A DNA stretch of 51,682 nucleotides, taken from a virus (taxonomy: Duplodnaviria; Caudoviricetes). Below, one piece after another: positions 3,553-37,920 of this stretch. The notes under the pieces were generated by a model, which worked only from the letters and a program-made list of their open reading frames with translations, had not been told where the DNA came from and did no database searches. The stretch is taken from IMG/VR virus record IMGVR_UViG_3300020044_007591, positions 1 through 51,682 of that record, one strand, 5' to 3'. The translations under genes were made by a program, and so were the position numbers. Numbering within the stretch: position 1 is the stretch's first letter; every line of letters starts with the position of its first letter.

Positions 3553-5581
3553 ATTTTCTATTTCTGATTTCTATAAGGGCTTCTTTATCGGCATCAGAAA
3601 GTTGCGGTATCCCGCTATCATCTTTTCCGCCGCTACCTGTGGGAGGTGCAATGGCGGATACGCCGGAAACAGCCATCAACTCATTACGGCCTTTCTTTCT
3701 AAAAGCATCAGCTGAGCTCTTAGAATAATCTTCAATTAATCTAACAGCAGCCCCAACGTCTTTTGGTTCTTTTGACAAAAGACGCTTTGTTAATTCAGCT
3801 GCGACCTCATCATTTAAACCGGGGTTAGCAATAGCAGTAGCAACATTATGGCTTAGTGATTTTGCACCGCCAAGCAAGTTTCCGCTTCCAGCCTGAATAA
3901 TGAAGTTTCCAACAGCGCCAGCGTTCTCAGTCAAGTTTGACTCGGCGCGTTCTTTTGCGCCTTTTTTAGTAGCCCCCATAATGTCTTTGGCATGGTCATG
4001 AAGCTCAACTTCGCGTTTCATTGCAGCTTTAAAAAGATCAAACTTTTCAGGGCTTTCAAATAGCGGAGCAAGTTTTGTTTCATTAAAATCGCCGCTGACT
4101 ACTTTTGCGACGCTAGAGCTTCCCTGTGCTGCTTTTTTGATTTTATCGTAAATATCTCTGGCAACGCCTGTTCTGGCGGCGGTTTTAGCAGCATCGCTTA
4201 AACCATTATAATATTGAGCAATCTCTTCATGATCCATGTTTTTAAAATTTTCTTTCCCTGCCGAGAAAGCATTGGTAATTTCTTTTTCATCTCCGTATTT
4301 CTTGCGTGTTTGAGCATATTTTGAAACGCCCGTCTTTGGGTCAATTGTTACCCTGTCAATTGTTGCAAGAAAAGGGTCTAGCACCTCTTTAAGAGCAGCA
4401 GCTTTAGCCTTGCTCATGCCATTTTGGCTTGAATAGGCAGAATCAATGTTGGCTTGAATCCCGCGCTTGAGATAATCCAGTGTTCTCACATCAGGAACAT
4501 CAACAAGTTTAAATGTAATCTCGCCTTTATCGTTTGTAACTGTTTGATAAAGCTCTTTTAACTTATACTTAGCCGCGTCTTCGCCACGAAGCTCAGCTGC
4601 CAAAGCCTCGGTTTCCGCAATCCCTTTGGCGGTTCTGAAAGCATTGGCAAAATCTGGATGATTTAGGACTTTGGCAATATCGGGGTGCTGAACATCGCCA
4701 AAAGAATATGCATCTTCATACCATTGGGGGGCATCAGAACGCAAGTTGGCAATAGTTTTTGCTTCATCGGTGTAATAATCACCGGCGCGAAGATCTTCTT
4801 TTACGCGCTGTTTAACTTTTCTTGGTTGCTGGTTGAGGGTGTTCTCAGCATCTTTCTGCAACTCACGCGAACCAGCCCTGCCCCGCCCTGCAAGCTTTTG
4901 AGCCAAGGCTCTTAGGTCGTCGCTAGAGTCCGCAAGAGATGACGTCATAACGCCAGCCCTGCGATCTTCAACAAGCCTTTCCATAAGTTGTTGAGGGGTT
5001 AACCCCGTGCCGCGAACTGCCCGCTCAAGAAGCTGTGCAGTTTTTCTTTCAACATTTGGAGCAAAATAATCTTTTATCGTATTCATTGTGCCGATAGCGG
5101 TTCTGTTAACAAGCGGGGTTGCGGCGCCAAAAGCTGTGCCAAAAACCCCATAGTTAGCCACTTCAGCCGGAACATCGCTTAATTCTTTAGCTGCGCCCAT
5201 TCCAGACGCAACGCCGGTTGTAAGGCCAGTTGCCATCGCACGCGCAGTTGGGCTTACCGCAAGCCTAGCAAGAGTGCCAGCACCTTTAGCCGCTGTGATA
5301 GGCGCAGAAGCCCCGCCAGTGAACGCCATAGGAGCAATGCCGCCAGCAAGTTCTAAAGCCGTAGATTCCATAGGGTAATCTTTGGCGTATTGTTCATTCT
5401 GTTTGCGGATCATATCCCTTGCGGATGTGTAATCTTCTTCACTAAGTTGAGACCGAAGATAAGCTTCAATCTCATCAGCGTTATTAAATGTTAACCCGCC
5501 AGCAACAGCTCTAGCGGGTCCATATCCGCGAGGCTCTGGAGGCTTTGGGAAGAAAAATTCTTGTGCATTTTCCTCAGCCAT
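3551..5581 (-). CDS. Internal virion / DNA ejection protein
   Basis: 676 aa, helical and Ala-rich; GLTFNNADEIEA start motif; last gene of the late block, as for podovirus ejection proteins. Confidence 0.6.
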   Translation of the reverse strand: MAEENAQEFFFPKPPEPRGYGPARAVAGGLTFNNADEIEAYLRSQLSEEDYTSARDMIRKQNEQYAKDYPMESTALELAGGIAPMAFTGGASAPITAAKGAGTLARLAVSPTARAMATGLTTGVASGMGAAKELSDVPAEVANYGVFGTAFGAATPLVNRTAIGTMNTIKDYFAPNVERKTAQLLERAVRGTGLTPQQLMERLVEDRRAGVMTSSLADSSDDLRALAQKLAGRGRAGSRELQKDAENTLNQQPRKVKQRVKEDLRAGDYYTDEAKTIANLRSDAPQWYEDAYSFGDVQHPDIAKVLNHPDFANAFRTAKGIAETEALAAELRGEDAAKYKLKELYQTVTNDKGEITFKLVDVPDVRTLDYLKRGIQANIDSAYSSQNGMSKAKAAALKEVLDPFLATIDRVTIDPKTGVSKYAQTRKKYGDEKEITNAFSAGKENFKNMDHEEIAQYYNGLSDAAKTAARTGVARDIYDKIKKAAQGSSSVAKVVSGDFNETKLAPLFESPEKFDLFKAAMKREVELHDHAKDIMGATKKGAKERAESNLTENAGAVGNFIIQAGSGNLLGGAKSLSHNVATAIANPGLNDEVAAELTKRLLSKEPKDVGAAVRLIEDYSKSSADAFRKKGRNELMAVSGVSAIAPPTGSGGKDDSGIPQLSDADKEALIEIRNRK

Positions 5582-7947
5582 TATTCAATCTCCTCAGATC
5601 TTTGACCATATTTACCACTAGAGACCAAATCAAATTCGTCTTTTGTCCGTTTAATATCTCTAAGCAATTTACTACGGGCATTAATGAGAATTTCATCTCT
5701 AGCTGTGGTAGAAGTCACATCCCCGCCCGCAATACTTTTTAAGAAAGCAAGATCTTTGTCACTAAAATTTCCTTTCATTAAGGCCGCGTTTTGAAGCGTA
5801 GCGCTATTAAGCGCCGACATCATAGCTTCAGTTGCCGTAACTCTAGGATCTGCTTTTCCAAATTTGTTTTTTAATCCAAACATAACTAATTTGTCTTTTC
5901 CGCTTCCGGTAAAAGCATTTTCGCTATGTTTGATCGCATTTTCAATTTGAATTAAAGCTTCATTGTAATTGTTAAGCTTGTTATCAATTCCAGCTTTAAG
6001 TGTTATAATTGCTGTTGGAAGATTCTTTTCATTTTTCGCCTTACGCGCATCTTCTGCTCTTTTAGACTCAATATCTTGAACTTCTTTATTTTCTTTAATT
6101 TTATTTAACCTGTTCATTTCAGCTTGAAACGCAGGTGTTCCGGGCTGAAAACCTCTATCAACCAGCTCTTTAGCTGTAGCAGATTGAGGTTCATTTTTCT
6201 TAAGCTCTGCCTCGTATTGTTTTGTAGCGAGTGCGCGGGCAGTAGTTTCACCTTCTTTGTGCTCTTCTTTAAGGTTTGCCAATTCATCCTTGGCAGTTTG
6301 AGCATCGATCTCACCGGTTTTAAGCAGCAATTGAAGTTTTGCTGCCGCAGCCGCTTTTTTGGCGTCAGTGGTGGACTTTTGAAAGTCAGCCAATTCTTTG
6401 GCTGCTAAAGCAAGATTCTCCATGATGCCGCCGGTTTTTGTCGGAGACGCTAAAGCGGCAGCCAGCCGAAAATACATTTCAGACTTAGACGGGGCGTTGT
6501 CGCCAGACTTTTCAGCTTGTTCTTTTAGCAGATCAATTAGTGACTTGTTCTTTTCAGCAACTTTTTGTTCAGCCGCAACAAGCTCTGGGGATCTTGGGCG
6601 TGGGGTATTATATTGGCGATATAGTTGCTCCAGTGTCATAGTTGCGGGCGAAACAGGCTTAACTGCTATAGTCTCTGCACCACCCCCATCGCCTTCTCCC
6701 ATGAGAGGAACTGGTCCTCTTGTCATGGGTGGTACGCCATTCCTCACAGCGCTTGCTTGAAGATCCTGAAGTCTTGCATCGCTCATTGGAACTGCTCCGC
6801 TTGGTGGCGAAACGCTATCATTAACTGGCGCCTTAACAGGGGGAGCCGCATCGGTAGTTGTATTGGTTTCGTTTTGTGCGTAAATAACCGGCAGCTCGGC
6901 AGGATTGTCGAGAGCGTATTTGTCGGCAAGGTCATTTATACCGCCATCAGTGCGATTGACTCCGCCGCCGTAAAAGTGCTTGACCTTGCCGCCATGAGAG
7001 AAAGAACTGTCTGGATTATTAGGGTCTGAATACCCAGCATTTTGGACAACCGAAACGCTATACGGATCTGTTGTATTTGTTAAATTTTGAGCTGTTTGCG
7101 CAGCCTGAGCCGTTTGCGCAGCATTCAATCCCAAATAACCCTGCATGTATTTCGCGACGTTATCGTTGGGGTTTTGACCAACGTATTCTTTAGCGCTGTT
7201 TGCAAAAGTAGAACTAAAGTTGGACGGGTTAACAGCTCCAGTATTGAGCTGGTTCATCCAATAATCATAGCCCGGCTGATCAATGTTGGTCGTGCCAGTG
7301 CCAATACCGCTGCGACCAATTCCTGAATAAGCAGAATTGATAAGAGACTGATAAACAGGGTTAACTGTTGGTTGATAATTTTTCATAACATTTGCTATGG
7401 AATTATCTGAGTTTTTATTGATGTAATCTTTGGCAGAAGAAGAAAACACCGCGTTAAAATCAGCCGGTGAAATTGCGCCAGTCTTTAACTGATTAGCCCA
7501 ATAATCATATCCGGCTTGATCAATATTATTAGCGCCCGCGCCAATTCCTGATCTTCCAACGCCAGCATACGCAGATTTTATAAGTGCGTCGTAATCAGGC
7601 GCTGTCTTGATATTTTTAACGTCCGTGATAGGCGACACAACCGTAGAATAATCAGGAGAAGTTAAAACAGCATCATATGAAGTTTTTTGCTGTGCTTTTG
7701 GCAAAATGTTCATATACGGACTAGAATACAAATCAGTTGAGGTTATGCGGTTTTTATAATCAGCCGTGTATTTATTATAAGCATCCTGATCAGCTTTATA
7801 CCGAGCAAGACCAGCCGCATTAGCTCCTTGCTGTTCAGGTGTTGCGTCAGCCGCAAGCGCAGCAGGAGATGCGTTGCCAGAGTAACCAGCAACCGTAGGT
7901 GTGCTGACCCCGTAAGATTTCATTAAACGATCAAGATTCGCGCCCAT
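5581..7947 (-). CDS. Internal virion protein with two DUF4214-like repeats and coiled coils
   Basis: 788 aa; duplicated Y..LI.SAY.G.GRSGIG.G..NIDQ.GYDYW.NQL.TGA unit; coiled-coil C-terminal half. Confidence 0.6.
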   Translation of the reverse strand: MGANLDRLMKSYGVSTPTVAGYSGNASPAALAADATPEQQGANAAGLARYKADQDAYNKYTADYKNRITSTDLYSSPYMNILPKAQQKTSYDAVLTSPDYSTVVSPITDVKNIKTAPDYDALIKSAYAGVGRSGIGAGANNIDQAGYDYWANQLKTGAISPADFNAVFSSSAKDYINKNSDNSIANVMKNYQPTVNPVYQSLINSAYSGIGRSGIGTGTTNIDQPGYDYWMNQLNTGAVNPSNFSSTFANSAKEYVGQNPNDNVAKYMQGYLGLNAAQTAQAAQTAQNLTNTTDPYSVSVVQNAGYSDPNNPDSSFSHGGKVKHFYGGGVNRTDGGINDLADKYALDNPAELPVIYAQNETNTTTDAAPPVKAPVNDSVSPPSGAVPMSDARLQDLQASAVRNGVPPMTRGPVPLMGEGDGGGAETIAVKPVSPATMTLEQLYRQYNTPRPRSPELVAAEQKVAEKNKSLIDLLKEQAEKSGDNAPSKSEMYFRLAAALASPTKTGGIMENLALAAKELADFQKSTTDAKKAAAAAKLQLLLKTGEIDAQTAKDELANLKEEHKEGETTARALATKQYEAELKKNEPQSATAKELVDRGFQPGTPAFQAEMNRLNKIKENKEVQDIESKRAEDARKAKNEKNLPTAIITLKAGIDNKLNNYNEALIQIENAIKHSENAFTGSGKDKLVMFGLKNKFGKADPRVTATEAMMSALNSATLQNAALMKGNFSDKDLAFLKSIAGGDVTSTTARDEILINARSKLLRDIKRTKDEFDLVSSGKYGQRSEEIE

Positions 7948-7962
7948 AATTGTTACCTTAAG

Positions 7963-9408
7963 TTACATAGAGGAAGCACCCTTGTACAAAGCCAATCCGC
8001 TAGCAAGTTGCGCAAGCGGAGATGCGCTGTAAGAAGCGCCAGACGTTGTACCTTGGTTAGTCGATGTGGTCGGTACACTTGGGGCCATGCCCCGAATTTG
8101 CGTATTGAGCCAATCGAGCTGCTGCTTGGGATAATTTTGCGCATTCTGAAACTCTTGTTGAGCGGCAGTAAGAGTTCTTTGTGCTTGACCCTGCTGAGCC
8201 TGACCGGCAGCTTCCAAAGCCGCAACGTCAGAAGTGCGCATGGCGTTCTGTTGCTGCGTCAAAGTTCCGACATTTGTAAGAGCTTGCATCTGACGAGCAT
8301 AATCTTGGGCCTGAGCTTGTTGAGCAGCTTGCGCAGCTGAAAGACCAAATTGCTGTTGAGCCTGACCAGCGGTGGTCTGCATCTGGCCAAGATTAGCAAG
8401 GTTTTGCATTTGCTGGCCGGTAAGCTGGCCAGCGGTTTGGCCAAGGTTTCCAAGCGATGATGCTTGCTGAGCGGTAAGCTGCCCAGCCGTCTGACCAAGA
8501 TTTCCGTACTGAGCACCACCCTGCAAGACGCGAGATAGATCGGCACCGCTGATGCTACCAACCGTGCCCGCCAATTGCGCCTGACGGGCAAGATCAGCTT
8601 GAGAAGCGCCAAGAGCCTGCCCATAGCCTTGATTGGCCATCTGTGCTTGTTGGTTAAGGATGGCTTCTTGAGTATCACGCAAAGCACGGCTACCGAACTC
8701 GCCCATTCGGCTACCACCAAACTGACCAGCTTTAATAAAAGAGTCAGACACTTGGGGAAGCAAGTTTTCGCTAAGGTTCCTAGCACCTTGTTGGGCAATA
8801 ACATCCATCGCATTTTGCTGATACGGACTCATATACTGGCCAATATTGGCAGCAGATGACTGAGAAGCTGCCTGCAAATAAGGGTTTGCGGCATTTAAAG
8901 CTCTGTCGGATAGCGCCTGAGCGGTTGTAGATCCAGCCTGATTAAGATATGGCTGCGCCGCACCCATGATGTTACCGGCAGAGGCAGCAGCTTGGCTAAG
9001 ATAGGGTTGCGCCGCACCCATTATATCCTGCTGGCCAGCTTGATTAAAATAACCCTGACCCGCATTTAGGTTCTGATCGACAAGACCTTGGCGCAAATAT
9101 TGATCTTGAGCCTGTCTTAGTTGATCTGCTGTGCCTTTTGACGAAAAATCTTTCATTCCGCTTGTGGCAAAATCCATATTAGGTTGCCAAGCGCCCTGAT
9201 TTTTCCGAACATTTTCATAAGCCTGTTTTTGCATTGCAGACAGCGGGGCAACAGTATCTAAACCGTATTCTTGATACGGTGTTTGAGCTGTATTTGTTGC
9301 CCACTGGATTTGATTATAAATTGCATCTTGCATCCACTTTGGCGTTTCGCTGGTGGATGTTGAGTAAGAAGTCGCCGTTTGCGGCGAACCCTGAAAAAGA
9401 CTTGCCAT
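7963..9408 (-). CDS. Gln/Ala/Gly-rich ejection (pilot-like) protein
   Basis: 481 aa; internal repeats IMGAAQPYL x2 and GNLGQTAGQLT x2; GQFGGSR motif; position among ejection genes. Confidence 0.6.
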   Translation of the reverse strand: MASLFQGSPQTATSYSTSTSETPKWMQDAIYNQIQWATNTAQTPYQEYGLDTVAPLSAMQKQAYENVRKNQGAWQPNMDFATSGMKDFSSKGTADQLRQAQDQYLRQGLVDQNLNAGQGYFNQAGQQDIMGAAQPYLSQAAASAGNIMGAAQPYLNQAGSTTAQALSDRALNAANPYLQAASQSSAANIGQYMSPYQQNAMDVIAQQGARNLSENLLPQVSDSFIKAGQFGGSRMGEFGSRALRDTQEAILNQQAQMANQGYGQALGASQADLARQAQLAGTVGSISGADLSRVLQGGAQYGNLGQTAGQLTAQQASSLGNLGQTAGQLTGQQMQNLANLGQMQTTAGQAQQQFGLSAAQAAQQAQAQDYARQMQALTNVGTLTQQQNAMRTSDVAALEAAGQAQQGQAQRTLTAAQQEFQNAQNYPKQQLDWLNTQIRGMAPSVPTTSTNQGTTSGASYSASPLAQLASGLALYKGASSM

Positions 9409-11042
9409 TAAACGGCTCCCTTAAGATAAGACAGAGGAGATTTAGCATTAGGGCTAAACTTGCCTTTAGCTAAAGTTTTGCCCTTTTGTTTGCGGAGTTC
9501 TTTGCGCATTTGGTCTAACCGACGAGCGCCTTCAGCATTAGACCCATCGCCAAGAAGCGCAACCGTCTCTGCATCCATCACATATTCGCCGTCTGATAAC
9601 TTTGCATTTATCGTATCATCTCGGCCAGATCCAGACCCGCGAGCAAGATTTGAAATATGGTTCAACGCCCCGCCATGAGCAGCAAAAGCTGTCTTTGGCT
9701 GAGCAGGTGTGGCGGGTGTCGATTTGTTGTATTGACCGCCAGTAATGTTATTCCAGTTGCTATTCAAATAGTCAGTCAATGACATATTTCTCTGATTAGC
9801 GTCAGCTTGAAGTTTATCCCAATCCCAGTACGTTGATGGGCGATTGAAATATTCTTGCTTATCTGGCGAGAGCGACGACACAGATTGTTGAACAGCTTTA
9901 GGTTGAGTTAATAATGAACCGGCTGTTAATCCTAAAATACCTAATTTTGCATAATCGCCAAATGTAGAGTCTTTATCAGGCACTAAAGATTTCAAGCTTT
10001 GTACAACATAATTTGCGGGACTGTTATAGGCTGCAAACTCTTCAACAGAGGGTCGCATTTTACCTAAATTTTCAAATCCGGGCGGCGTTGGGACATTAGC
10101 CTGATCAATTGCGGCTCTAGCTAACGGGCTTACGTTATCTGCTGCGGCAGTTGTTGTTCCTTCAACAGCCGCAGGGGCTACGTTATCAGCCACCGCATCC
10201 GTAGCGGCTTTTGCCCCAGTTGCGCCAGCTGAAAATAGTCCGTTTTCGCCGGTTAATCCTAGACTGTCAGTTGCTTTTGTAAGAAACCCGCCTTCGCCGG
10301 TTAAACCTAAACTATCTGTAGCTTGCCCGACTAGACCGGCAGGGCCAAGAAGGTAATTCCCTAAACCTGCGGTCAATCCGCCAATTACAGCGCCTTTAGC
10401 GCCTCCGCCCAAAGCCCCCGCGCCAGCCCCAATTACACCAGCACCTAAAGCTGAGGTAGCCGCAGCGCCTAAGCCAAGCCCCAAGCTGCCGCTAATAGCG
10501 CTGCCAATGGCCGTGCCAATACCCGGTGCAATGAATGATAAGGCTATGGGTAGAATAGCGCCCAGAATAGAACCCCAAGAAGATTTAAATTGAGGCAAGC
10601 CCGTTGAGGGGTTGAGCGTTCCCAAGGCGCCACGGCTCATAAGCATCTGAGCTTCTCTGGGGTTTATGTGCGCAAGCATCGTGTCGCCACCACGACCCTC
10701 GCTAGCAATACGCCGACCCGCTACTTTCAGCCCTCCGCGAGCATATCCTTGTTGATTCATGCGATCCTGAAGGCCGTAAAGCGCAACAAGAAGAGAGACA
10801 ACAAAAGTCATGTTAAATTGAGGAGGAAACATGTTTTCGTCAATTTCGCCATCTTTAATGGCGGCGTCGCGAATTTCTGCGTATTTAGACGGGTCTTTAA
10901 GAATATGCTCCAAAAAGCTAATCATCTCGTCCATGTCTTGAGGGACGATAGGTTGCCGAGCCAATTGCTCTTCCATCATATCCACGCTCTTTGAGAACCG
11001 TGGATCTTTGTTGGCGAGCTGAATAATTTGCTCTCTGTTCAT
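9408..11042 (-). CDS. Internal virion protein with Gly/Ala-rich hydrophobic segment
   Basis: 544 aa; GRGGDTMLAHINP.EA...NP.TGLPQF and GSG..DD.I.AKLSDGEYV modules flank a long hydrophobic Gly/Ala tract. Confidence 0.6.
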   Translation of the reverse strand: MNREQIIQLANKDPRFSKSVDMMEEQLARQPIVPQDMDEMISFLEHILKDPSKYAEIRDAAIKDGEIDENMFPPQFNMTFVVSLLVALYGLQDRMNQQGYARGGLKVAGRRIASEGRGGDTMLAHINPREAQMLMSRGALGTLNPSTGLPQFKSSWGSILGAILPIALSFIAPGIGTAIGSAISGSLGLGLGAAATSALGAGVIGAGAGALGGGAKGAVIGGLTAGLGNYLLGPAGLVGQATDSLGLTGEGGFLTKATDSLGLTGENGLFSAGATGAKAATDAVADNVAPAAVEGTTTAAADNVSPLARAAIDQANVPTPPGFENLGKMRPSVEEFAAYNSPANYVVQSLKSLVPDKDSTFGDYAKLGILGLTAGSLLTQPKAVQQSVSSLSPDKQEYFNRPSTYWDWDKLQADANQRNMSLTDYLNSNWNNITGGQYNKSTPATPAQPKTAFAAHGGALNHISNLARGSGSGRDDTINAKLSDGEYVMDAETVALLGDGSNAEGARRLDQMRKELRKQKGKTLAKGKFSPNAKSPLSYLKGAV

Positions 11043-12808: not shown

Positions 12809-14010
12809 CAAAAATCTCCGCCATCAATATTACCGGCCTGAGCAACGCCTAAAGCTGCCCAAGCAGCCGGTTGATCAACAGCTGTAAACAGCGCTATGCC
12901 TGTAGATGTTCCGCCAAGATTTATGAGCGCCCCACCAGCTGTAGTAGCGCCTGTGCCGCCTTGAGAGACAAGAATAGGATAACTTGCCGTGGCTGTATCG
13001 GCGTCAATTACGTCAGAACCATCGCAGTAATAAATACCGCGCTCGCCTTGAGCAACTTGAACGCCTGTCCCAGCTGAAGTGCGAACAGTCAGAACATATG
13101 CGCCGGTCGTAGAATTATCCAGCCAATACTGTTGAACAGTGCTAGGGACAATTACATCTCGATCACCTGTCAAAACGCCCGTAAATTTGTAAACAATTCT
13201 GTTAAGCTCTGAACCCGTCAAAGTATAATTGCCGGAACCGGCAATATCTATGACGGTGTAATCAAAAACAAAAACAGACGCTTGGCCAAATCCTAGCGTG
13301 TAATAATCAGTTCCATCGCTGATAATTACAGATGATTCTTCCGGCTGATAATCTTTTGTAGCAAGACCATCAATATTTGCGGTTCCATCCGGCTGAACAG
13401 AAACTTGCCCGCCACCGGCATTTCGCAAATACATGAACCAATTATTGCCGACCGTAGCAGGATTGGGGAGCGTAAGCGTTCCGCTGCCACCGCTATTCCA
13501 AACGTACATTTTGGCGCGATCATTAACGCCAGCAACGTAATCTGAGTTAAAAAGGGTAATGGGAACAGATTGGCTGAGCAACGTGCCGACGGCCACAATT
13601 CCCGTTCCAGCTAGGGCTGAAGCATTGGCCTGAGAAACAGACGCGCCAAATTGCAGCGAATCCCATGTTCCAGCTTCGGTTGTGTTATTAGTCAGATAAA
13701 TCTGCCAAACTTCACCAGACCCGATTGAAACAACTTGGACGCCCGTAGCCGTTTTAACAATGAAGGTTTCAGCGCCTTTATTGTTAAAGAGAATTGTTTC
13801 GCCAACGCCAGCTTTCTGGGCGTCAGGCAAAAAGATGCTCAAACCCGAACTAGCCGCCGTAACGTCTATAATCCTAGTCGCCAGATTTTCGCTAGTTGAG
13901 GTTTCTTCCGGCCAGCTAAGGACAATATCGGTTGAAAGCGCGATGGCGCTATAGCTTATCTCAGCAGGATAAATATTAGCGCCGCCAAAAACGCTTGTGT
14001 AAGTTGTCAT
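12808..14010 (-). CDS. Tail / proximal fibre structural protein
   Basis: 400 aa, beta-rich, with repeated TLTLP/IFLP..N modules, a GGTGATTA fibre motif and C-terminal IDGGDF. Confidence 0.6.
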   Translation of the reverse strand: MTTYTSVFGGANIYPAEISYSAIALSTDIVLSWPEETSTSENLATRIIDVTAASSGLSIFLPDAQKAGVGETILFNNKGAETFIVKTATGVQVVSIGSGEVWQIYLTNNTTEAGTWDSLQFGASVSQANASALAGTGIVAVGTLLSQSVPITLFNSDYVAGVNDRAKMYVWNSGGSGTLTLPNPATVGNNWFMYLRNAGGGQVSVQPDGTANIDGLATKDYQPEESSVIISDGTDYYTLGFGQASVFVFDYTVIDIAGSGNYTLTGSELNRIVYKFTGVLTGDRDVIVPSTVQQYWLDNSTTGAYVLTVRTSAGTGVQVAQGERGIYYCDGSDVIDADTATASYPILVSQGGTGATTAGGALINLGGTSTGIALFTAVDQPAAWAALGVAQAGNIDGGDF

Positions 14011-27328: not shown

Positions 27329-27931
27329 TTACTTCTTGCCCATGGTCATGCCACCTTTTTTCATCATCTTGCTGTCAGGCATCATTTTACCATCAGGCAT
27401 TTTATGCATACCGACTTTGCCGCCCTTCTTATAAGGCACATTGCCGGTCTTTGTAGCCATAGTAGGCTTGCCGTTCATCTCACCGGGGTTCTTATTGCCC
27501 TTGATGCCCAAGGTGCCTTCAGGCTTCAGCATACCCTTGCCGCCCTCTACAAAACCGCCCTTTTTCATAGCGCTAGGCTGAATCATAGGAGCCATAGGCG
27601 CCACAGGCATAGCGCGGCGCATGGGGGCCTTAACCATGCGGCTTTGCATGATCTCGTCTTTCTTCATGCTAGGCGTTTCCATCGACTCATGTTTCATCAT
27701 GGCGCGGCGGCTGGGATATTTCTCGCCAGTAGCAGGCTCTTTCATGCCGCCCTTGGCGTAATACCCACCGCTAGCCATCTTGGTCATTTTCTGCCCGACC
27801 AGAGACTTTTCAACAGCCTTAGATTTGGCCATCTGAACGTCCTGACCAGCCTTTGCAGACCCGCCATAGCTGTAGTTGCAAGGCTTTGCACTAAAGTCAA
27901 AATCTTTGACATACATTGGACCTTTTGCCAT
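27329..27931 (-). CDS. Met/Lys-rich basic low-complexity protein with seven xxxGG motifs
   Basis: ATG 27931 (MAKGPMY) after AAGGGGA; contains YSYGG, MASGG, YAKGG, MKKGG, FVEGG, YKKGG, MKKGG. Confidence 0.7.
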   Translation of the reverse strand: MAKGPMYVKDFDFSAKPCNYSYGGSAKAGQDVQMAKSKAVEKSLVGQKMTKMASGGYYAKGGMKEPATGEKYPSRRAMMKHESMETPSMKKDEIMQSRMVKAPMRRAMPVAPMAPMIQPSAMKKGGFVEGGKGMLKPEGTLGIKGNKNPGEMNGKPTMATKTGNVPYKKGGKVGMHKMPDGKMMPDSKMMKKGGMTMGKK

Positions 27932-27942
27932 TTCCCGTCCCC

Positions 27943-30489: not shown

Positions 30490-31020
30490 TTAGGAAAGAT
30501 CAAACTGAGCTTCCCTACGTTGCCCAATCTCCATATTGCCATCGCCCATTGTTAACCGCGACTTTGAAGATTTAGCCTGCTGCTCAAGAAACTCTGCGGT
30601 GTCGGTAAGTTTTTCTTCCTCACGCAAAGGCGCATCGTGATGCGCTTCTGTCATATATCTCTCGTAAAGAGAGATTGGCAGCTTGAATGCAAGCATTTCA
30701 TTCACCCCAATAAGGCCCTGCCAATCACCTGTTTTCAGGGTGGCATATTCCCAGCCGGGAACGTCTTCCGGCTTCACTGGCTCATAGCCCAAACGAATCC
30801 TCGTCTGGATGGAATCACGGGGGTTAGTCGTGGTCAGCCAGCACATGTGCCAGCCGGGTATCTTAGGCAAGTCCGGTAAACTGGACTGGAAAAATTGTTG
30901 ACGGAACATTGCAACTCGCTCATCGTCAGAAATCTCGCGATTTTCTGTTACAGCGCGATCTTTCATCGCACGGTTTTCGCGTTCTACGCCTGCAAGTTTT
31001 TTAAAGCGTTCGTCGTTCAT
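30490..31020 (-). CDS. Conserved head-region protein
   Basis: LP..P..PG....W.......R...GYEPV pattern between scaffold and capsid genes. Confidence 0.65.
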   Translation of the reverse strand: MNDERFKKLAGVERENRAMKDRAVTENREISDDERVAMFRQQFFQSSLPDLPKIPGWHMCWLTTTNPRDSIQTRIRLGYEPVKPEDVPGWEYATLKTGDWQGLIGVNEMLAFKLPISLYERYMTEAHHDAPLREEEKLTDTAEFLEQQAKSSKSRLTMGDGNMEIGQRREAQFDLS

Positions 31021-31077: not shown

Positions 31078-31083
31078 GATGCG

Positions 31084-32004: not shown

Positions 32005-32017
32005 CTCTCATCTCCCT

Positions 32018-32431
32018 TCAGATGAATGCTTTAACCACAAGTGGATTGCCTGTTACGTCACCAAGAACATCTAAGTCATTGAAAATAACAAACATTGCCT
32101 TTTCGCCATCGTCGCCAAAAGCAACTTCCCAACGGTCGCCGCCGTATTTGGCAACCCTAATGAAATCGCCGGGCTTGCACCAAGCGCCTTCTGGCCATGG
32201 CTCCATTGTGGTTCTATTTTTAAACGCCAGCGGACCTACTGTGATCACCTTAGCAACCTGAGTGTTCCACTTTTCTGTATCGCGGGTGTCCTCAACGATT
32301 AAGATTCCGCCCCTCGATTTCTTTCTTGGTGTTCGAATCTGTACCAGAACGCGGCTACCAAAAGGCCGAACGCCAGCATCTACTGCTGGAAAGGCCTCTA
32401 CCAATGCGTCCTCAGAGATCTTTCTCTCCAT
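32018..32431 (-). CDS. GroES-like co-chaperonin
   Basis: RP.G.RVLV......S.GGI.........A.V..VGP....K.GD.....YGG.......ND.DVLG. Confidence 0.8.
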   Translation of the reverse strand: MERKISEDALVEAFPAVDAGVRPFGSRVLVQIRTPRKKSRGGILIVEDTRDTEKWNTQVAKVITVGPLAFKNRTTMEPWPEGAWCKPGDFIRVAKYGGDRWEVAFGDDGEKAMFVIFNDLDVLGDVTGNPLVVKAFI

Positions 32432-32609
32432 ATTTGTCCTCACTTATAAGACTAAGAAGTACGTTAATTGCTGCCTCGTAACCCTCTACGATGCCCACAC
32501 GATACCCGTACTCGAAAGCATCGCGGTTCTGAGGCCGCTTCAAAGCCTCAAGAGCGAACTCTTGTTGGGCGGCTTTGAGGCGAACCAGAAGTTGTGTTTC
32601 AAAGTTCAT
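32412..32609 (-). CDS. Small helical protein after the portal gene
   Basis: 65 aa; EY...VG...G motif; overlaps both neighbours. Confidence 0.65.
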   Translation of the reverse strand: MNFETQLLVRLKAAQQEFALEALKRPQNRDAFEYGYRVGIVEGYEAAINVLLSLISEDKYGEKDL

Positions 32610-32752: not shown

Positions 32753-32768
32753 TGTGTTCTCCTATTTA

Positions 32769-35261
32769 TTAACCACCGGGGTTGACGCCGGTTCCAGTAG
32801 AGACGGAGAACTTCTCCCCCGTCGCAATCTCAAGTTGGGCAAGATTCATGGCCGTTTGGTTGTCGGCGCTGTTCATACGCTCGCGGGTTGCAAGGTCAGC
32901 CGCTGTGCGCTGGTCATCGCCTTGTTGACGGATCTGTTCTCTGGCCAGATCCAGATCCAGTTGCTTCTGGCGAGCCGCCAATTCAGCTTGCTTGATCTGA
33001 ATATCTTGCTGCGCCTTAGCCTGATCATTTTGCAGACGAGCCTGATCGATCTGCGCACGCTGCTGAAGGGCTTGACCTTGCAGTTGAGCATTGAGCTGGG
33101 CAATCTGCATACTATTATCGGGGGGCATCTGAGGCTGCGGCTTGAACTGCTGAGCCGCTTGGTCAAGCTGCGTGAGATCTTGCCCAAACGATCCAAGTTG
33201 CTTTTCAATGAACTGCTGAACCTGAACAATTATCTTTGCTTGCTCGTTGGCATCTTCTTTGATCAGTTGTTGTTTCTGAGCCATGTCAACCGCGTTATGC
33301 GACTCGACAAGGTAGTAATTCAGCAAATGGTCCCGCAGATGGGTAGCGATTGGGTACATATACGTCTTGGCAATCACCGGGTTGCTGCCAAATAGCGGCG
33401 ATTTAAGAAACGCCATGTGCGTCATAATATGCGCCATATGATCTTGGTGCGGCAGAACGTATATAGGGCGGCTCATAGTTGCGGCCACGTTCTCAGACAC
33501 CGGGTCCATGTTTTCGCTGCCCGGCTTTGGCTGTAAAACCTCGGCTTCGGGCACTTTCATGTCGCGTAGAAAACGTTCCTCAACTTTTCTAGCGTCATAC
33601 ATTTGCGGCATAAGCGTTGCACGCTGCATAATTGCTTGAGTTTGGGCAAAACGCTGCGTATCGCTGAAAATAGCCGGATCGCTGACCGGAATAACGTCCA
33701 AAGGCCCGTCAAAATCAGACGGATCAATATCGAGGCCTGATTCTTGGGCTTTTATGTCCTCAATCGTCAAATATGCCGAGTTAATACGGTGCAGAATCTT
33801 TAAACACCGCGCCATTGAGCTATGAAGGCGCGAGTGGATGCTGCTAAACACCACCATCCCCTGCTCAATAAGCGCCATTGTAGTGCCGACAGGCTGTGCT
33901 GTGCTAGAATCAGACAGTTTTTCAAAGGATGTTTGAACAACGCCCTTACCTGCATCAACCAAAAAGCCCAAAAGCTGGAAAAGCGTCGGACTTGGGCCAT
34001 TAAATGGCAAAGGCATAGCAATTTTACGCACATCGTCGATCATCGCGCCGCCTTCAAGCTCGATAATCTCGGTCGGCTGTACGTTAATCGTCTGCCCGCC
34101 GGGGCCGCCTTTGAGCTTCAAGAGGGTTGGGACGTTCTGAATGTGCGCCGAATCTAGCAAAGCACGCAGTGCGCCGGTGGCCGCGCCACTCAGGCCACCA
34201 ATCATATGGGTGAGGCCGATTGGGTAGGCGCCGCGCCAAGGCACGAACGGAAACTCTACAATCCAATCTAGCTCCTTACGGCGCTCGTCATCGGGTTCCC
34301 AGTTTCTATATACGCTGAGAGCCTTACTGCTGCTTTTATCAATGCTGATAATATAGGGCTCTGTGTCATCGCCAAAATCTAGGCTCGTATAAATCTCGTA
34401 TACGGTTCGAAGGCCATCCTCGTTGTAACCAAGATCTTTGCGCCCCTCGATCTTGTCGTTAGCTTTAGAGCTTTCGCTAAAATCTGGATCATCAGGCGAG
34501 CCAACGTCTATATCCCGATACATGCCGGACTTAACGCGGTTTTGGAACTCCATCTCGGTTATGTACTGAACGTGTGTCTTGCGCTCCGCCGTATAGAAAT
34601 TGGTGGCCGAGAATGGAAGATATATATCGTCAATCGGGATAAACTCTGACGTTGGGCGAGAGTACTTAGAGCTCCACATGAACTTCATGTATTGCCCGCC
34701 ACCCAGCGGGAGTTGGGTGCTTAGTTGCTCAAGCTCGCCTCTGAACTCAGCCATCTGTTCAGTGAGCTGCCAGTTCATAAATGCTGACTTGCGTTGCCCT
34801 TTTTGAACTTTCTCGTGATCTTGAATACCAAGGATTTTGCTCTTCACCGGCCCATTTGGCGGAAAGACTTCTTTCATAAAGCGAGCGGAGAAATCTACGC
34901 AAGCTTCAACAAGCATTGGGTGCACAACCTTGTTGGCGCCAGTAAACTGAGCGCCTCCGGGGGCGTCATCGCCTAAGCCTGTACGGCGCAAACCCTCTTC
35001 GTATTGTTTGTCGCGCTTTTCACGGGCTTCTTTGTCTCTGTCGATTTTATCAAGAAGATCGTTTACTGCGGTCTTTAACATCGCCTGATCGACTTCATCA
35101 ACGATGTTTGCGAAATGCTCTAGGTGAACGCGCTCGTCTTTGTCGTTCTTCATGCGGATGATAGCGCCGCCATCTTCGGTATCTTCAATTTCGTTATCAA
35201 CATCCTCAAGCTGAATGTTTTCGCCTTCGGTTTGGTCGTCATCATTCAAGTTATCAGGCAT
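32769..35261 (-). CDS. Portal protein with long Gln-rich C-terminal barrel
   Basis: About 830 aa; HFAN, V.HP.L.EA.V.F, MNWQLTE.M.E, PVGTT.AL.E and PVSDP motifs; Q-rich coiled-coil tail as in P22-type portals. Confidence 0.85.
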   Translation of the reverse strand: MPDNLNDDDQTEGENIQLEDVDNEIEDTEDGGAIIRMKNDKDERVHLEHFANIVDEVDQAMLKTAVNDLLDKIDRDKEAREKRDKQYEEGLRRTGLGDDAPGGAQFTGANKVVHPMLVEACVDFSARFMKEVFPPNGPVKSKILGIQDHEKVQKGQRKSAFMNWQLTEQMAEFRGELEQLSTQLPLGGGQYMKFMWSSKYSRPTSEFIPIDDIYLPFSATNFYTAERKTHVQYITEMEFQNRVKSGMYRDIDVGSPDDPDFSESSKANDKIEGRKDLGYNEDGLRTVYEIYTSLDFGDDTEPYIISIDKSSSKALSVYRNWEPDDERRKELDWIVEFPFVPWRGAYPIGLTHMIGGLSGAATGALRALLDSAHIQNVPTLLKLKGGPGGQTINVQPTEIIELEGGAMIDDVRKIAMPLPFNGPSPTLFQLLGFLVDAGKGVVQTSFEKLSDSSTAQPVGTTMALIEQGMVVFSSIHSRLHSSMARCLKILHRINSAYLTIEDIKAQESGLDIDPSDFDGPLDVIPVSDPAIFSDTQRFAQTQAIMQRATLMPQMYDARKVEERFLRDMKVPEAEVLQPKPGSENMDPVSENVAATMSRPIYVLPHQDHMAHIMTHMAFLKSPLFGSNPVIAKTYMYPIATHLRDHLLNYYLVESHNAVDMAQKQQLIKEDANEQAKIIVQVQQFIEKQLGSFGQDLTQLDQAAQQFKPQPQMPPDNSMQIAQLNAQLQGQALQQRAQIDQARLQNDQAKAQQDIQIKQAELAARQKQLDLDLAREQIRQQGDDQRTAADLATRERMNSADNQTAMNLAQLEIATGEKFSVSTGTGVNPGG

Positions 35262-37920
35262 AATTTCCCTCACGGATGCTTGCTGCGATAGCGTCTATCT
35301 CTGCGGGGTCATAAACTGCAACAGGTCCGCCCTGCGCGTATTTACGACTCTTCTTTGAATACTTGCGATAGAGCTTCATAAGATTTTTGTTAACTGTGCC
35401 GCCGAGAGCGTAGTCGCCGTCTCCGCCGTCGCTGCTGTCGTTTTCTGGGCCTCCATCTTCAGGGCCTCCGTCTTCAGGACCGCCATCTTCAGGGCCTTCA
35501 GATTCAGACGCAGCTTCTTGCTGATCTTGCATTTCTTGAATGGCGTTTGAAAGTCCCATTGGACCACTCAACCCGAATGTTCCGTAGTTTATGTCGCCCA
35601 AAACATCAAGAGAGTCTAGCGGATCAAATGTGCCAGCAGGGTTTGTGCCCGCGACTAAGCCGTTAAAGTTTTCTTGGGGTGCGCCAACATTAGGCATTTG
35701 GCCCTCGCCAAACAAAGACAAGTCGCCGTTAATAATTCCTTGAGCAATAGCGGCGGCTCTTTCGTCACCAAACATTTCTTGTTGAACGGCAAGCCAGTCA
35801 GCCAACTGCTCAGGAGGGATTGAAACATTTGTTACAGACGATGGGAGTTGGCCATATGCACCCGCCAATGCTCTTGATTCATCAACAAAAGTAGATCTTC
35901 CAGCCCCAAGATAGCCGGGCAATGTTTCGTCAGCGCGGCTCGCAATTTTGCCGCTATCCGTAAACCCCGGCGAAACAAGATTGCCAACACCTCTCGATGA
36001 TGGCGCAAAACCCTCAATTGGTGACGGAAGCGCAGCCACGTTTGTGTTTGTAATTGGCGTGGTCGCCGCCGTCTGGGTTGATGTTGGGTTTGTTTGAGAA
36101 GACGTAATGACAGCCGCCTGCTGGGATGGCGATAGGTTTGACAAATTATAAGACTGCACAGCACCCGGTTGGTAGTTTGCATTGCTGTACGGAACCAGAT
36201 CATTGGTGTGAGGATCATACGCAACAGTCGCAGGGGTGTTTGTCGTAAAGTTTGTGCTTGTTGGTGTTTGCTGACTTGTATTGTCACCACGGGTAACACC
36301 CGCATTCATGGCCGAAACCATTTCGGCATATCTATCAGCTGCATCTTGACTCTGCGCGTCATCGGCAACCTTGTAACGCCGCGCCATTTCATTGAGCAGG
36401 TCTATGTTAGTTTGCGCAATGTCGGCTTGGCCACCAAGTGCGTAGCCTTTAACGGAGCCGCCGTGACTTTTAGTTATGTCTGGATTTTTCATATCGAAAG
36501 TTCCACGGTTGCCTGTAGCAGATTTAATTTGGCTAGGATCAAATACAACATAGTGAGTATGGTCTTGGCCCGTAGGATAAAATTGTTTTGTACGGTCATC
36601 CCATAATGTGTACGGACGTTGAATCATCACTCCGTCATACCCAGCGTTACGAGCGTTTTTTACGGCATCAGAATCTGTTGCTCCGCCGAACCTTTCCCAA
36701 AATTCTGCTGGATCTTTAACTACGAAAGGCTGTTCCATCCTAACGTGCAAAGGCATAACATTACGACCGCCCTGATGCGTTCCTGCATATGAGGATGCTT
36801 CATCAGTTAAATCGGTTGCGTAAACTCCCGGCCCAAACTCTCCGGTATTTGAAGGTTTGAACGTGCTAATGTCGGAAGCGGTGCCATGGTAAATTGTTTT
36901 AGGGCTACCGTCTTTATTCCGCACTACGCTGTAACCAAGCCAATCCTCAAGGTTTTTTGCACGTTCCGGACTATCATGCGGTATATATTTATCTTGATGA
37001 ATTTCATCTGCCAATTTACGCAAAGGCTCAGACCCGCCGCCGGATTTTTTATTTACTTTGTTAAGATGATTCCATATTTCATTTAATGTTTTATTTGTAA
37101 AAAAAACAGGAATTGATGATGCATTTTCATTTAACGCAGCAATTGTTCGGTGATGTCCATCAAGAACCATTGATCTATATTTGGTATCATATGGAGATCC
37201 CTCCACCAAAATAGGCGGAAGAGGCTCATTCTTTTGAATAACTGATTGCACTTCTTGTATTTGCTTTGCAGATTGAGGGCTTAATACGTCATTCCAAGAT
37301 TCCATTTCAAATGGATCAAGGGATTTGGGGTTATATTCATAATGCGCAGGAAGCTTTTTTTGCTTTTCTGCTATTTTAAGCAAATCCTCATGGGACGCTT
37401 TAGCTGGGTTATTTGGCTCAATTGCATATTTATCTAAAAAATCATTTTTGTTTAATTTTTTTGCATCTTCAAAAAAATTCCAACTAACTCCATTATGTGT
37501 TTTAACTGGTCCTGAACCTAACACCATTTCACCAGCGCGAACTGGAGCGCCAACAATACCGCCCATTACATTGCCAAGCTGGTTAATAAGATACTTGGTT
37601 GCACTCATCCGTTCCCAGTCTAGTGGATTGCCTTCCATGTCAACCGGAATTGGACCTTGATCAGTGTTGATAATATTGCTTGCCATCTTCGGCAGCTCGA
37701 CGCCAGTCTGATCGAGCTGCGCAAGCGTTGCTTCATCCATCAAGGATTTAAGGCGGTCTCTTGGGCGCTGCGTAAACGGCTCGGCTATTGCCCCGCCGAT
37801 AACGCTCATAGCTTTATTATACCAATCTGGTGTCTCGACCTCGCCAGTGTATTCGCCGCCGCTAGCGGGATACTTGCTCAGCATGTTTCTCAGGTCATCT
37901 TCCGTCATGTCTATCACCAC
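35254..37920 (-). CDS. Polyvalent protein: ParB-like domain, ADP-ribosyltransferase (ART-PolyVal-like) domain and low-complexity tail
   Basis: PPILV...VLDGHHR..A; V...DG.P...YHGT, G.GVY.T, A..YA, GYDG and VVF.PSQIKSA.GN.G.F motifs. Confidence 0.7.
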   Translation of the reverse strand: MVIDMTEDDLRNMLSKYPASGGEYTGEVETPDWYNKAMSVIGGAIAEPFTQRPRDRLKSLMDEATLAQLDQTGVELPKMASNIINTDQGPIPVDMEGNPLDWERMSATKYLINQLGNVMGGIVGAPVRAGEMVLGSGPVKTHNGVSWNFFEDAKKLNKNDFLDKYAIEPNNPAKASHEDLLKIAEKQKKLPAHYEYNPKSLDPFEMESWNDVLSPQSAKQIQEVQSVIQKNEPLPPILVEGSPYDTKYRSMVLDGHHRTIAALNENASSIPVFFTNKTLNEIWNHLNKVNKKSGGGSEPLRKLADEIHQDKYIPHDSPERAKNLEDWLGYSVVRNKDGSPKTIYHGTASDISTFKPSNTGEFGPGVYATDLTDEASSYAGTHQGGRNVMPLHVRMEQPFVVKDPAEFWERFGGATDSDAVKNARNAGYDGVMIQRPYTLWDDRTKQFYPTGQDHTHYVVFDPSQIKSATGNRGTFDMKNPDITKSHGGSVKGYALGGQADIAQTNIDLLNEMARRYKVADDAQSQDAADRYAEMVSAMNAGVTRGDNTSQQTPTSTNFTTNTPATVAYDPHTNDLVPYSNANYQPGAVQSYNLSNLSPSQQAAVITSSQTNPTSTQTAATTPITNTNVAALPSPIEGFAPSSRGVGNLVSPGFTDSGKIASRADETLPGYLGAGRSTFVDESRALAGAYGQLPSSVTNVSIPPEQLADWLAVQQEMFGDERAAAIAQGIINGDLSLFGEGQMPNVGAPQENFNGLVAGTNPAGTFDPLDSLDVLGDINYGTFGLSGPMGLSNAIQEMQDQQEAASESEGPEDGGPEDGGPEDGGPENDSSDGGDGDYALGGTVNKNLMKLYRKYSKKSRKYAQGGPVAVYDPAEIDAIAASIREGNYA
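35442..35498 (-). repeat. Coding tandem repeat (GPEDG)n
   Basis: GPEDGGPEDGGPEDGGPEN, degenerate 15-bp units. Confidence 0.7.

Follow-up and report, generated by a model that had tools for sequence, protein, structure and literature searches.

A short peptide with the conserved core [F/Y/M]-A-x-G-G-x-V, limited to a few late proteins of one phage lineage, was shown by sequence comparison to occur in two settings, namely in a tail module that spans about 30 residues at the C-terminus and at joints between protein domains. Its most likely role, put forward tentatively and at somewhat less than an even chance, is to dock proteins that are kept in the virion lumen, and candidate partners for such a joint are named below. 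No published description of such a loading or release tag was found, and the available part of a review on ejection proteins does not mention such a motif.

Phage genome and relatives

The window (the whole stretch of DNA analysed, 51,682 nucleotides) is a 51.7-kb record that represents a complete phage genome. The phage appears to be of the short-tailed type and a distant relative of roseophages CRP-901 and CRP-902; the available part of the paper on these two contains neither morphology nor proteome data. Family scans of the late ORFs matched no family of tail tubes, sheaths, or long tape measure proteins, and matches to SU10-type adaptors and to ejection proteins indicate a short tail; the gene at 7963–9408 gave a weak family match to the phrog "DNA ejection protein". 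Within the limits of HMM sensitivity, none of the ORFs scanned in this complete genome matched a peptidase family, which agrees with the earlier statement that no prohead protease is evident; since a scaffold-like protein is present and a protease is not, the prohead is presumably assembled with no proteolytic step. The 30490–31020 protein was considered as a cysteine protease and rejected, because its His and Cys residues are not kept in phage DSL-LC04 or in CRP-902.

From gene order and family matches we infer that the four motif-bearing proteins described below probably lie inside the capsid. Phage DSL-LC04, a distant relative whose terminase is 31 % identical and whose head genes stand in the same order, has nine copies of the motif, all within late proteins of the same classes; Caulobacter phages of the GB2A/RW group carry the motif as well. 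Only scattered matches were present in CRP-902, none in the 2986-aa internal protein of Octadecabacter virus BD1 despite the same ART domain, and none in P22, its ejection proteins included, in the scan of model phages. Since related head genes thus occur in phages with few or no copies, a conserved head protein is improbable as the reader of the motif.

Motif definition, chance tests, and conservation

The preliminary description had noted the loose pattern [FYMK]xxGG in four otherwise unrelated late proteins. The shared motif is real and conserved, and the quoted strings were found where they had been placed. Chance frequencies were estimated from 5000 shuffles per ORF (66 ORFs, 16,284 aa) with the composition of each protein kept. 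The loose pattern was observed 28 times against 16.7 expected (p=0.007), and thus exceeds chance, but its enrichment is only mild (1.7-fold); tighter forms stood out more clearly, with eight copies of [FY][AS]xGG against 1.53 expected (p=0.0002) and five of YAxGG against 0.50 (p=0.0002), so that the motif is more frequent than a Gly-rich background would provide. The five YAxGG copies are all accounted for by three of the four late proteins. Because the shuffle-tested patterns were picked after inspection of the data, conservation in homologues serves as the independent test, and it was passed: the GG pairs show little or no variation among 22 homologues of the 5581–7947 protein and 21 of the 9408–11042 protein, even beside differing neighbour domains and in families with an overall identity of 27–50 %, and the copies in the small basic protein recur across 13 related loci. 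Codon usage differs from copy to copy, which indicates selection on the protein and excludes a DNA repeat or a recombination joint acting at the DNA level.

A logo was compiled from 166 distinct contexts. At position −3, which the search pattern restricts to F/Y/M, Y or F accounts for 97 %; G is found at −4 in 46 %, S at +1 in 45 %, V at +2 in 78 %, and S at +3 in 30 %. Positions +1 and +3 are chiefly S, P, or polar, and the residue directly after GG varies, proline included. In the joint form a short helix (L-x-x-L-Y-x-K-Y) precedes A-x-G-G-x-V between domains that are shuffled among relatives, and in the tail module of about 30 residues G-Y-A-x-G-G-S-V is followed, after 1–4 residues, by Y-D-P-x-x-(I/V)-D-x-(I/L). 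The preliminary description, partly supported overall, had missed these larger modules to which the motif belongs. AlphaFold2 assigned pLDDT values below 50 to every motif region, although its columns rank among the best conserved, as is usual for peptides that become ordered when they bind a partner.

Motif-bearing proteins

All features given in this section are encoded on the minus strand. The late protein at 5581..7947 (788 aa) consists of a DUF4214-like N-terminal part, a conserved joint for which no fold is predicted, and a long helical C-terminal half. Pfam gave a single DUF4214 match (residues 142–172), and the confident AlphaFold2 blocks at about 119–272 may be read as two DUF4214-like repeats. 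The joint (FSHGGKVKHFYGGGVN, 6955..7002) carries FSHGGKV at 7002–6982 and HFYGGGV at 6978–6958; the family consensus at this place is YAHGGPVRHFYGGG..IDGGI.DLADKYAL.NPAELP. Its motif (residues 316–330) lies within the low-confidence stretch 273–389 ahead of the helical half, and the position at a domain border claimed earlier for this protein was thereby confirmed by Pfam and AlphaFold2. A search for related loci in viral contigs and a tblastn search of isolate phages gave no match to this protein.

The polyvalent cargo protein at 35254..37920 comprises 888 aa when counted from GTG, and its homologues start at ATG 37908 ("MTEDDL"). Its gene is always located between those of the large terminase and the portal, here and in the related loci, and the product is referred to as the slot protein. 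Several unrelated domains are combined in one chain: a DGHHR region, ART-PolyVal (residues 335–475), and a long tail made up of a low-complexity region and the C-terminal tail module. No Pfam or PHROG match to MuF, to another known head-anchor domain, or to an embedded peptidase was obtained in this protein. An N-terminal helix-plus-GG unit (DDLRNMLSKYPASGGEY, 37849..37869) is also N-terminal in the homologues P0064, P0065, and P0070; by eye, the C-terminus of the scaffold-like protein (REKYARRYAEYD) resembles this helix unit. KKSGGGS (37027..37050, with KKSGGG at 37050–37027), a weak, non-canonical copy, separates the DGHHR region from the ART domain. Right behind the latter follows the double copy KSHGGSVKGYALGGQA (36424..36471), with KSHGGSV at 36471–36451 and YALGGQA at 36444–36424; the KSHGG/YALGG pair corresponds to residues 484–497, and homology with P0064–P0066 begins at this double copy. 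Of the borders between ParB, ART, and low-complexity tail proposed earlier, the one behind ART was recovered, because the pair follows the ART-PolyVal match, whereas the ParB label was not: Pfam is silent for residues 151–329 at E≤1, and the DGHHR string is the sole basis of that label. The tail module forms the last 61 aa (35257..35439) and comprises YALGGTV (35412–35392), a basic helix, and YAQGGPV (35340–35320)-AVYDPAEIDAIAASI. A separate 92-aa ORF (37914..38192) equals the N-terminal domain of the relatives' slot proteins; it ends with KVKW-stop where the relatives go on with W-[AN]-[DA]-GGSV, so that the split of the gene coincides exactly with a motif site.

The small basic protein at 27329..27931 is rich in K, M, and G, has a pI of 10.15 (213-aa GTG form), and contains seven GG copies at 27874–27344, as had been counted before; all seven GG pairs, counted over 27329–27970, are preceded by [FYMK]xx. 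A tblastn search of isolate phages with this protein gave no match.

The ejection-type, tape-measure-like protein at 9408..11042 is composed of an N-terminal helical domain, YARGG, the conserved block GDTMLAHINP...NPSTGLPQF, a Gly-rich hydrophobic core, and a C-terminal module. YARGGLK (10725..10745) marks the end of the helical domain, and G99, G103, G104, and L105 are invariant among the 21 sequences of the family. The C-terminal module FAAHGGAL...GSGSGRDDTINAKLSDGEYVMDAETV... (9411..9695, with (F)AAHGGAL at 9686–9663) is shared with proteins annotated as tape measure. The protein matches phrog_3547 and phrog_6090, PHROG tape measure families at about 9e−5, and annotated tape measure proteins in tblastn at 3e−20. 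Mycobacteriophage Douge gp16 was matched by the family profile at E=4.8e−4 and, in two copies, by the profile of the C-terminal module at 9e−9, the lambda sequence being included in the latter profile. Lambda gpH contains FATGGF and LYRLMRGYATGGYV, the only two strict copies in the lambda ORFs; MAFFT aligns A, GG, G, GE.V, and G.G with the module, the profile-profile comparison by hhalign gives a probability of 0.6 %, and the likeness can be placed at motif level only. In the scans of model phages the tape measure protein of HK97 had no copy, and neither tape measure proteins nor ejection proteins carry the motif as a rule. Pfam at E≤10 returned no family for either the tail module or the tape-measure-like module.

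Distribution over related loci and within slot proteins

Portal relatives numbered 515, and 80 loci, picked by portal homology alone, were scanned for the motif over the head half (up to 10 kb to either side of the portal gene; 885 ORFs). All 220 strict copies fell in two gene classes, the variable polyvalent slot protein, encoded between terminase and portal, and the small basic protein whose gene takes the position of 27329–27931. In the other ORFs of these loci (approximately 164,000 aa) there was no strict copy, even though the other protein classes hold 1152 GG pairs, among them 546 in the portal (54,858 aa), 135 in the large terminase, and 84 in the scaffold-like protein; the capsid protein, the tail protein, and the early-side ORFs were likewise free of strict copies. 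Both motif-bearing classes are plausibly virion-internal, and the motif is therefore confined to plausibly internal proteins when these are compared with the others in the head half of the 80 loci.

Among 49 slot proteins picked by position only, 48 carry the motif, with 147 copies in total. The last 80 aa hold 63 of these copies (43 %, against 8.5 % expected) and the first 60 aa nine (6.4 % expected), so that the enrichment is C-terminal and not N-terminal; these copy counts, like the breakpoint counts below, come from related, non-independent proteins. A copy lies in the last 60 aa of 41 slot proteins, and in 28 of the 49 the full YDP tail module is terminal. The earlier reading of the motif as an address label for the prohead gains from this strong bias; copies that occur in tape measure proteins, among them lambda gpH, do not fit it, because a module common to proteins that are not loaded into proheads shows that a prohead address is not the whole story.

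When the last 61 aa were used as a phmmer query, 18 proteins were retrieved among 1.84 billion representatives. In the 11 sequences inspected the tail module ends the protein or comes close to its end, is often repeated in tandem, and is borne by proteins that otherwise differ; P0205 and P0198 appear to be fragments of longer proteins. Of 364 breakpoints of homology, 51 lie no more than 5 aa from a copy, where permutation gives 9.5 on average, and 56 lie equally near another GG pair (permutation mean 26.6); 313 are away from any copy. A predicted complex of the portal with the 61-aa tail, run as a single pair without controls, scored 0.00 and carries no weight for or against binding.

Proposed role and alternatives

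As a docking joint, the motif would consist of a tight Gly-Gly turn flanked by strand-forming residues that folds only once bound, and would pin unrelated cargo domains to a common putative partner within the virion lumen. This partner may be a portal-proximal core, a channel-forming ejection protein, or other motif-bearing chains. Cargo would be taken up during assembly, held extended, and let out through the tail channel in an ordered sequence; the address would be supplied by the terminal tail module, with internal copies acting as hinges between independently folding effector domains and the multi-copy 27329–27931 protein as multivalent glue or filler.

A passive hinge or shuffling joint, that is, a favoured turn-plus-strand linker that spreads with recombining modules and has no specific reader, is possible but on the whole unlikely. 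The enrichment of breakpoints near copies, the gene split at a motif site, the low pLDDT, the patchy occurrence across phages, and the flexibility of GG, which unfolded passage through a narrow channel needs, are all compatible with it. Conservation, however, exceeds that of plain linkers, as is evident from V at +2, G at −4, and GG pairs that do not vary in families of low overall identity; moreover, a module that ends the protein, and the 43 % of copies concentrated near the C-terminus, cannot be linkers, and the differing codons speak against swaps driven by DNA homology. By-production of the motif by Gly-rich low-complexity sequence is refuted: the mild enrichment of the loose pattern and the K-, M-, and G-rich composition of the small basic protein would suit it, but the excess of YAxGG over composition-keeping shuffles, the many GG pairs elsewhere without a strict copy, and the conservation of copies in homologues do not. 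Recruitment of the host chaperonin by mimicry of the co-chaperonin mobile loop is very improbable. A GroES-like protein of the phage (Cpn10 match, E=2.6e−7) has a loop, KKSRGGILIV, that fits the loose pattern; binding of the GroES loop requires three hydrophobic residues after GG, however, which this loop has in ILIV and the motif lacks, and the loop in turn is without the aromatic-Ala pair of the motif.

Cleavage at or near GG, by a host protease, an unrecognised phage protease, or self-cleavage, would free effector domains or shed a targeting tail; we consider it improbable. Nearly every recognisable domain is flanked by copies, and the domain encoded by its own gene that ends at the motif site implies that separated domains are viable. 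P0199 has, by eye, a JAB/MPN-like domain (HTHPGQG...S..D) with the tail module at both ends, and the note in the database record of P22 gp7 states that a host protease trims this protein. In lambda gpH, as described in the available part of PMC12617516, a Gly-rich region just upstream of the two copies is cut by an unknown catalyst; the estimated cut at about residue 710 is nevertheless 20–30 residues upstream of the first copy (733) and not at a copy. Further points against cleavage are the absence of peptidase families from the scanned ORFs of the complete genome, the scaffold-like protein without protease, the variable residue after GG, and the tandem copies at the extreme C-terminus, which would free only short peptides. 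The cleavage site offered as a second reading in the preliminary description is thus unsupported, since no protease match is available to read it.

Returning to the docking joint, it is doubtful, though conceivable, that the tail of about 30 residues is a portable loading and injection tag of a large aquatic group of short-tailed phages, and that the same core, where tape measure proteins such as lambda gpH have it, marks an ancient handle shared by all proteins that leave a tailed phage before its DNA. Any domain bearing the tail module would then be packaged and delivered to the host. If the module is an address, it would allow injected phage effectors to be recognised by sequence in metagenomes, with the slot proteins as a highly varied store of effector domains, and chosen proteins could be loaded into phage particles by means of a small tag. 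The shared peptide connects ejection proteins of short-tailed phages with tape measure proteins of long-tailed phages, and places a defined element beside the still unexplained cut of lambda gpH. Should the motif be a hinge only, it would still mark module borders in these proteins.

Comparison with known systems

The C-termini of tape measure proteins (lambda gpH 733–788, Douge gp16, the chain of PDB 8rk3) have the same core as the 9408–11042 protein, followed in both by a block of the type G-x-G-T-G-x-S-D-S-I-x-A-x-L-S-x-G-E-F-V. Tape measure proteins are likewise kept in the virion lumen and expelled first, but they reside in tail tubes, for which no family was matched in this phage. The module region is unresolved in the structures of lambda (available part of PMC12617516) and Douge.

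Polyvalent proteins combine several effector domains; their genes lie next to those of portal and terminase, and the proteins are predicted to enter the particle and be injected, as set out in the available part of Iyer et al. 2017 (PMC5512222). The 35254–37920 protein carries their ART-PolyVal domain, its gene likewise adjoins the packaging genes, and the slot proteins of the relatives combine PcfJ, ART, DUF4214, and tail lysozyme domains. Processing by embedded metallopeptidases, as proposed for polyvalent proteins in that source, has no counterpart here, such peptidases being absent from this phage; "linker" or "glycine" is not mentioned in its available part (PMC5512222). T7 gp6.7 and gp7.3, both ejected from the T7 virion, resemble the small basic protein in size, basic charge, GG content, and position among head and tail genes, and gp6.7 is injected according to the note of its database record; the aromatic residue adjoins GG in the T7 proteins, whereas it is three residues before GG in this phage.

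Double-glycine leaders are encoded alongside a dedicated C39 peptidase domain, and no C39-type or other peptidase family was matched in any scanned ORF of this phage. The internal proteins of T4 bear an N-terminal capsid targeting sequence that is removed by the prohead protease; unlike this signal, the present motif shows no N-terminal enrichment (9 of 147 copies), is accompanied by no protease gene, and has internal copies as well. The cargo-loading peptides of encapsulins are C-terminal and glycine-containing and, like the T4 signal, direct cargo into a shell of HK97 fold. Both the encapsulin and the T4 peptides differ from the motif in consensus, but share with it the principle of a short terminal tag on unrelated cargo, and the encapsulin peptides are C-terminal, as is the copy in the last 60 aa of most slot proteins (41 of 49).

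Genome organisation

The window (51,682 bases) is a complete virus record with direct terminal repeats and a completeness rating of 100%. Its long minus-strand block starts with a ParB-methyltransferase gene (40307-41590 (-); ParB-like N-terminal domain fused to an N6/N4 DNA methylase), directly upstream of the small and large terminase genes, followed by the polyvalent protein 35254-37920, an 834-aa portal and, ahead of the scaffold-like gene, a GroES-like protein (32018-32443 (-), Cpn10 match E=2.6e-7). Next come an acidic, coiled scaffold-like protein, a pair of small conserved proteins, a Mu-gpT-like capsid protein and the small basic protein 27329-27931, and after these the adaptor, tail and endolysin genes; a match to the 2OG-Fe(II) oxygenase family (16751-17386 (-), phrog_81, E=1.5e-19) lies amid the tail and lysis genes. 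The block ends, in order, with 9408-11042, 7963-9408 (product matching the phrog "DNA ejection protein"), 5581-7947 and 3551-5581.

The phage is probably short-tailed, because SU10-type adaptor matches and ejection-protein matches were obtained and family scans of the late ORFs returned no tube, sheath or long tape measure family. The closest isolates by terminase are the roseophages CRP-901/902 (44% identity), and a GcrA cell-cycle regulator homologue (2412-2942 (+), E=1e-16) hints at an alphaproteobacterial host. The loop of the GroES-like protein reads KKSRGGILIV, and its gene is also kept in CRP-902 and in the distant relative DSL-LC04. No head-module protein in the loci displayed is better conserved than the 176-aa protein 30490-31020 (-) (85-93% identical), whose homologues hold 0 GG pairs in 6,123 aa.

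Occurrence and conservation of the motif

The strings quoted in the preliminary description, which had proposed a shared [FYMK]xxGG motif in four late proteins, were all located in the translated ORFs with their coordinates correct. When 66 ORFs (16,284 aa) were subjected to 5000 composition-keeping shuffles per protein, this loose pattern was observed 28 times vs 16.7 expected (p=0.007), [FY][AS]xGG 8 times vs 1.53 (p=0.0002) and YAxGG 5 times vs 0.50 (p=0.0002). In the small protein 27329-27931, all 7 of 7 GG pairs are preceded by [FYMK]xx. Codons differ among the copies, and the motif is therefore not a DNA repeat.

Conservation in homologues was found for three families. The 5581-7947 family (n=22, 27-63% identical) carries the block YA[HK]GGPV[RK]HFYGGG..IDGGI.DLADKYAL.NPAELP, the best-kept part of its N-terminal half, with G319 and G320 kept in at least 90% of members; YRAHGG...DLADKYAMGGPV is retained by distant members whose N-terminal region differs. 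In the 9408-11042 family (2176 matches, 21 members aligned), G99, G103, G104, L105, G457, G458 and L460 are invariant. Among 13 IMG/VR loci encoding the small basic protein, YAKGG, MKKGGFVKGG and KKYA[DEA]GGP recur despite very different protein lengths. The preliminary description had named lack of conservation in homologues as a refuting outcome, and these families do not bear it out.

Several further features of these families were recorded. Downstream of YARGG, 9408-11042 has another conserved block, GRGGDTMLAHINPREAQML...G.G.NP.TGLPQF (10560-10700 (-), residues about 115-160), which is also present in DSL-LC04 and in the proteins P0202 and P0209. The profile of module 9411-9695 (-) gave a non-significant match, which may be due to chance, to the cyclophilin segment ..QGG-DFT.G.GTGG.SIYG..F.DEEF.. 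(E=0.35). Small basic protein relatives in loci L002-L009 have long Q/M/P/G-rich tails (up to about 500 aa in total), and the C-terminal end of more remote relatives (L010, L012, L014) is a DUF6496 domain (L012 E=5e-9).

Distribution across relatives

From 515 related stretches returned by a portal query, 80 loci (portal 74-86% identical), spanning up to 10 kb either side of the portal, were retained; ORFs of at least 60 aa (n=885) were classed by blastp against the window, and distinct sequences were counted. The strict pattern [FYM]AxGG occurred 220 times: 27 copies in 35254-37920 homologues, 77 in slot proteins (the variable polyvalent proteins encoded between large terminase and portal) whose N-terminus matches the 92-aa ORF of the window, 19 in small basic protein homologues, and 97 in ORFs that have no homologue in the window. 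The slot upstream of the portal accounts for 86 of the 97; the other 11 are in four ORFs downstream of the portal, which were taken, judged by place alone, to occupy the position of the small basic protein. All other ORFs in these loci (about 164,000 aa within 10 kb of the portal) contained 0 strict copies, including the portal (546 GG pairs), large terminase (135), scaffold-like (84) and capsid (48) proteins, a 948-aa tail protein family (167) and early-side ORFs (19,037 aa).

In DSL-LC04, whose terminase is 31% identical and whose head genes keep the same order, 9 copies were counted, in late proteins only. Among them, three are at the slot protein N-terminus, a single copy is in a 114-aa protein encoded behind the portal, and the 9408-11042 homologue (annotated as tape measure protein) has three, with one more two genes further on. 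CRP-902 gave scattered matches only and no 5581-7947 homologue. Octadecabacter virus BD1 has 0 copies; its 2986-aa internal protein has the same ART domain.

Position, longer units and predicted structure

When 49 distinct slot proteins were selected by position alone, 48 contained the motif. The last 80 residues held 63 of the 147 copies (8.5% expected) and the first 60 held 9 (6.4% expected); 41 of the 49 have a copy within 60 residues of the C-terminus, and a full tail module closes 28 of the 49. Together with 11 further proteins from the C-terminal query, 166 distinct contexts gave the logo G(46%)-[Y69/F28/M3]-A-[E47]-G-G-[S45]-V(78%). Of 364 ends of blastp matches between slot proteins, 51 lie within 5 aa of a copy (permutation mean 9.5, maximum 23), and 56 lie within 5 aa of other GG pairs vs 26.6 permuted, counts drawn from related proteins in which events are not independent.

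Longer units are built around the motif. When the last 61 residues of 35254-37920 were used as a phmmer query, 18 proteins were matched among 1.84 billion representatives, some short rows being evident fragments. In the 11 examined, the tail module Y-A-x-G-G-S-V, 1-4 residues, Y-D-P-x-x-(I/V)-D-x-(I/L) stands at or near the C-terminus, frequently in tandem; its carriers are unrelated polyvalent proteins, a protein with a putative JAB/MPN-like domain assigned by eye, and others that share the architecture of 9408-11042. A second unit, a helix L-x-x-L-Y-x-K-Y plus A-x-G-G, is found at the N-terminus of 35254-37920 and relatives, between its two C-terminal copies, and in the 5581-7947 family. Downstream of ART domains the string GN.GTFD..NP.I.K..GGSVKGYA.GG recurs.

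The 92-aa ORF (37914-38192 (-)) corresponds to the N-terminal domain that slot proteins carry in relatives (67-75% identical) and ends where these continue with W-[AN]-[DA]-GGSV. In the window it is a separate gene with a 7-base overlap with the next start; either a natural split or a frameshift may explain this, and a weak DUF5754 hint was all that Pfam gave.

AlphaFold2 models from family alignments were low in confidence overall (mean pLDDT 48 and 56), and their predicted folded parts end at the motif. The 9408-11042 model has a helical domain (1-98), with 99-152 and 441-502 at pLDDT <50; the 5581-7947 model has confident blocks at about 119-272, read as predicted DUF4214-like repeats, then 273-389 at pLDDT 26-37, within which its conserved motif block falls, and then a helical half.

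Interpretation

The peptide element is conserved, limited to few late proteins and concentrated at C-termini and module borders, and in the models it proves unfoldable on its own. Most likely, if still tentatively, it is a docking joint of proteins that the virion stores in its lumen, and the tail module would act as the address. A passive hinge and shuffling joint is a less probable reading.

Cleavage at the motif, considered in the preliminary description together with the remark that no prohead protease was evident, is more doubtful still; that remark held, with no peptidase family match in any scanned ORF, and a conserved His/Cys pair is absent from the conserved 30490-31020 protein. Mimicry of a chaperonin loop is very improbable, and chance, for a pattern in excess over shuffled sequences and kept in homologues, slightly more so. 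Among freely readable main texts, full-text searches for literal motif strings returned an unrelated plant paper only, and word searches found no such motif, so an earlier description may exist elsewhere; "linker" and "glycine" are absent from the main text of the polyvalent-protein paper (Iyer et al. 2017, PMC5512222).

Comparison with tape measure proteins and lambda gpH

The C-terminal part of 9408-11042 matches PHROG tape measure families and annotated tape measure proteins of Caulobacter phages (3e-20), whose genes share its end-of-module gene order; mycobacteriophage Douge gp16 matched the family profile at E=4.8e-4. A module-only profile, in which lambda was included, detected the module twice in Douge gp16 and once in the 8rk3 chain, each time beginning with [YF]A.GG. 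This link points to storage in the lumen and exit via the tail before the DNA as the common trait, and because of it an address for the prohead only, as proposed earlier, is unlikely.

Both of the only two strict copies in the lambda ORFs lie in gpH 733-788, FHFATGGFTGTGGKYEPAGIVHRGEFVFTKEATSRIGVGNLYRLMRGYATGGYVG; homology of the module with lambda was unsupported by profile-profile comparison. Passages of a published account (PMC12617516) describe a cut by an unknown catalyst within a glycine-rich region of gpH, which yields gpH* (about 1-710) and a C-terminal fragment, and give residues about 690-817 as unresolved. The Pfam lambda C-terminal family spans gpH 627-701 only. Strict copies are absent from P22 and from the HK97 tape measure protein; HK97 (L106) has two in its gpI-like (lambda-I-like tail) protein (13834-14442) and one in J, lambda protein I being the partner of the gpH C-terminus.
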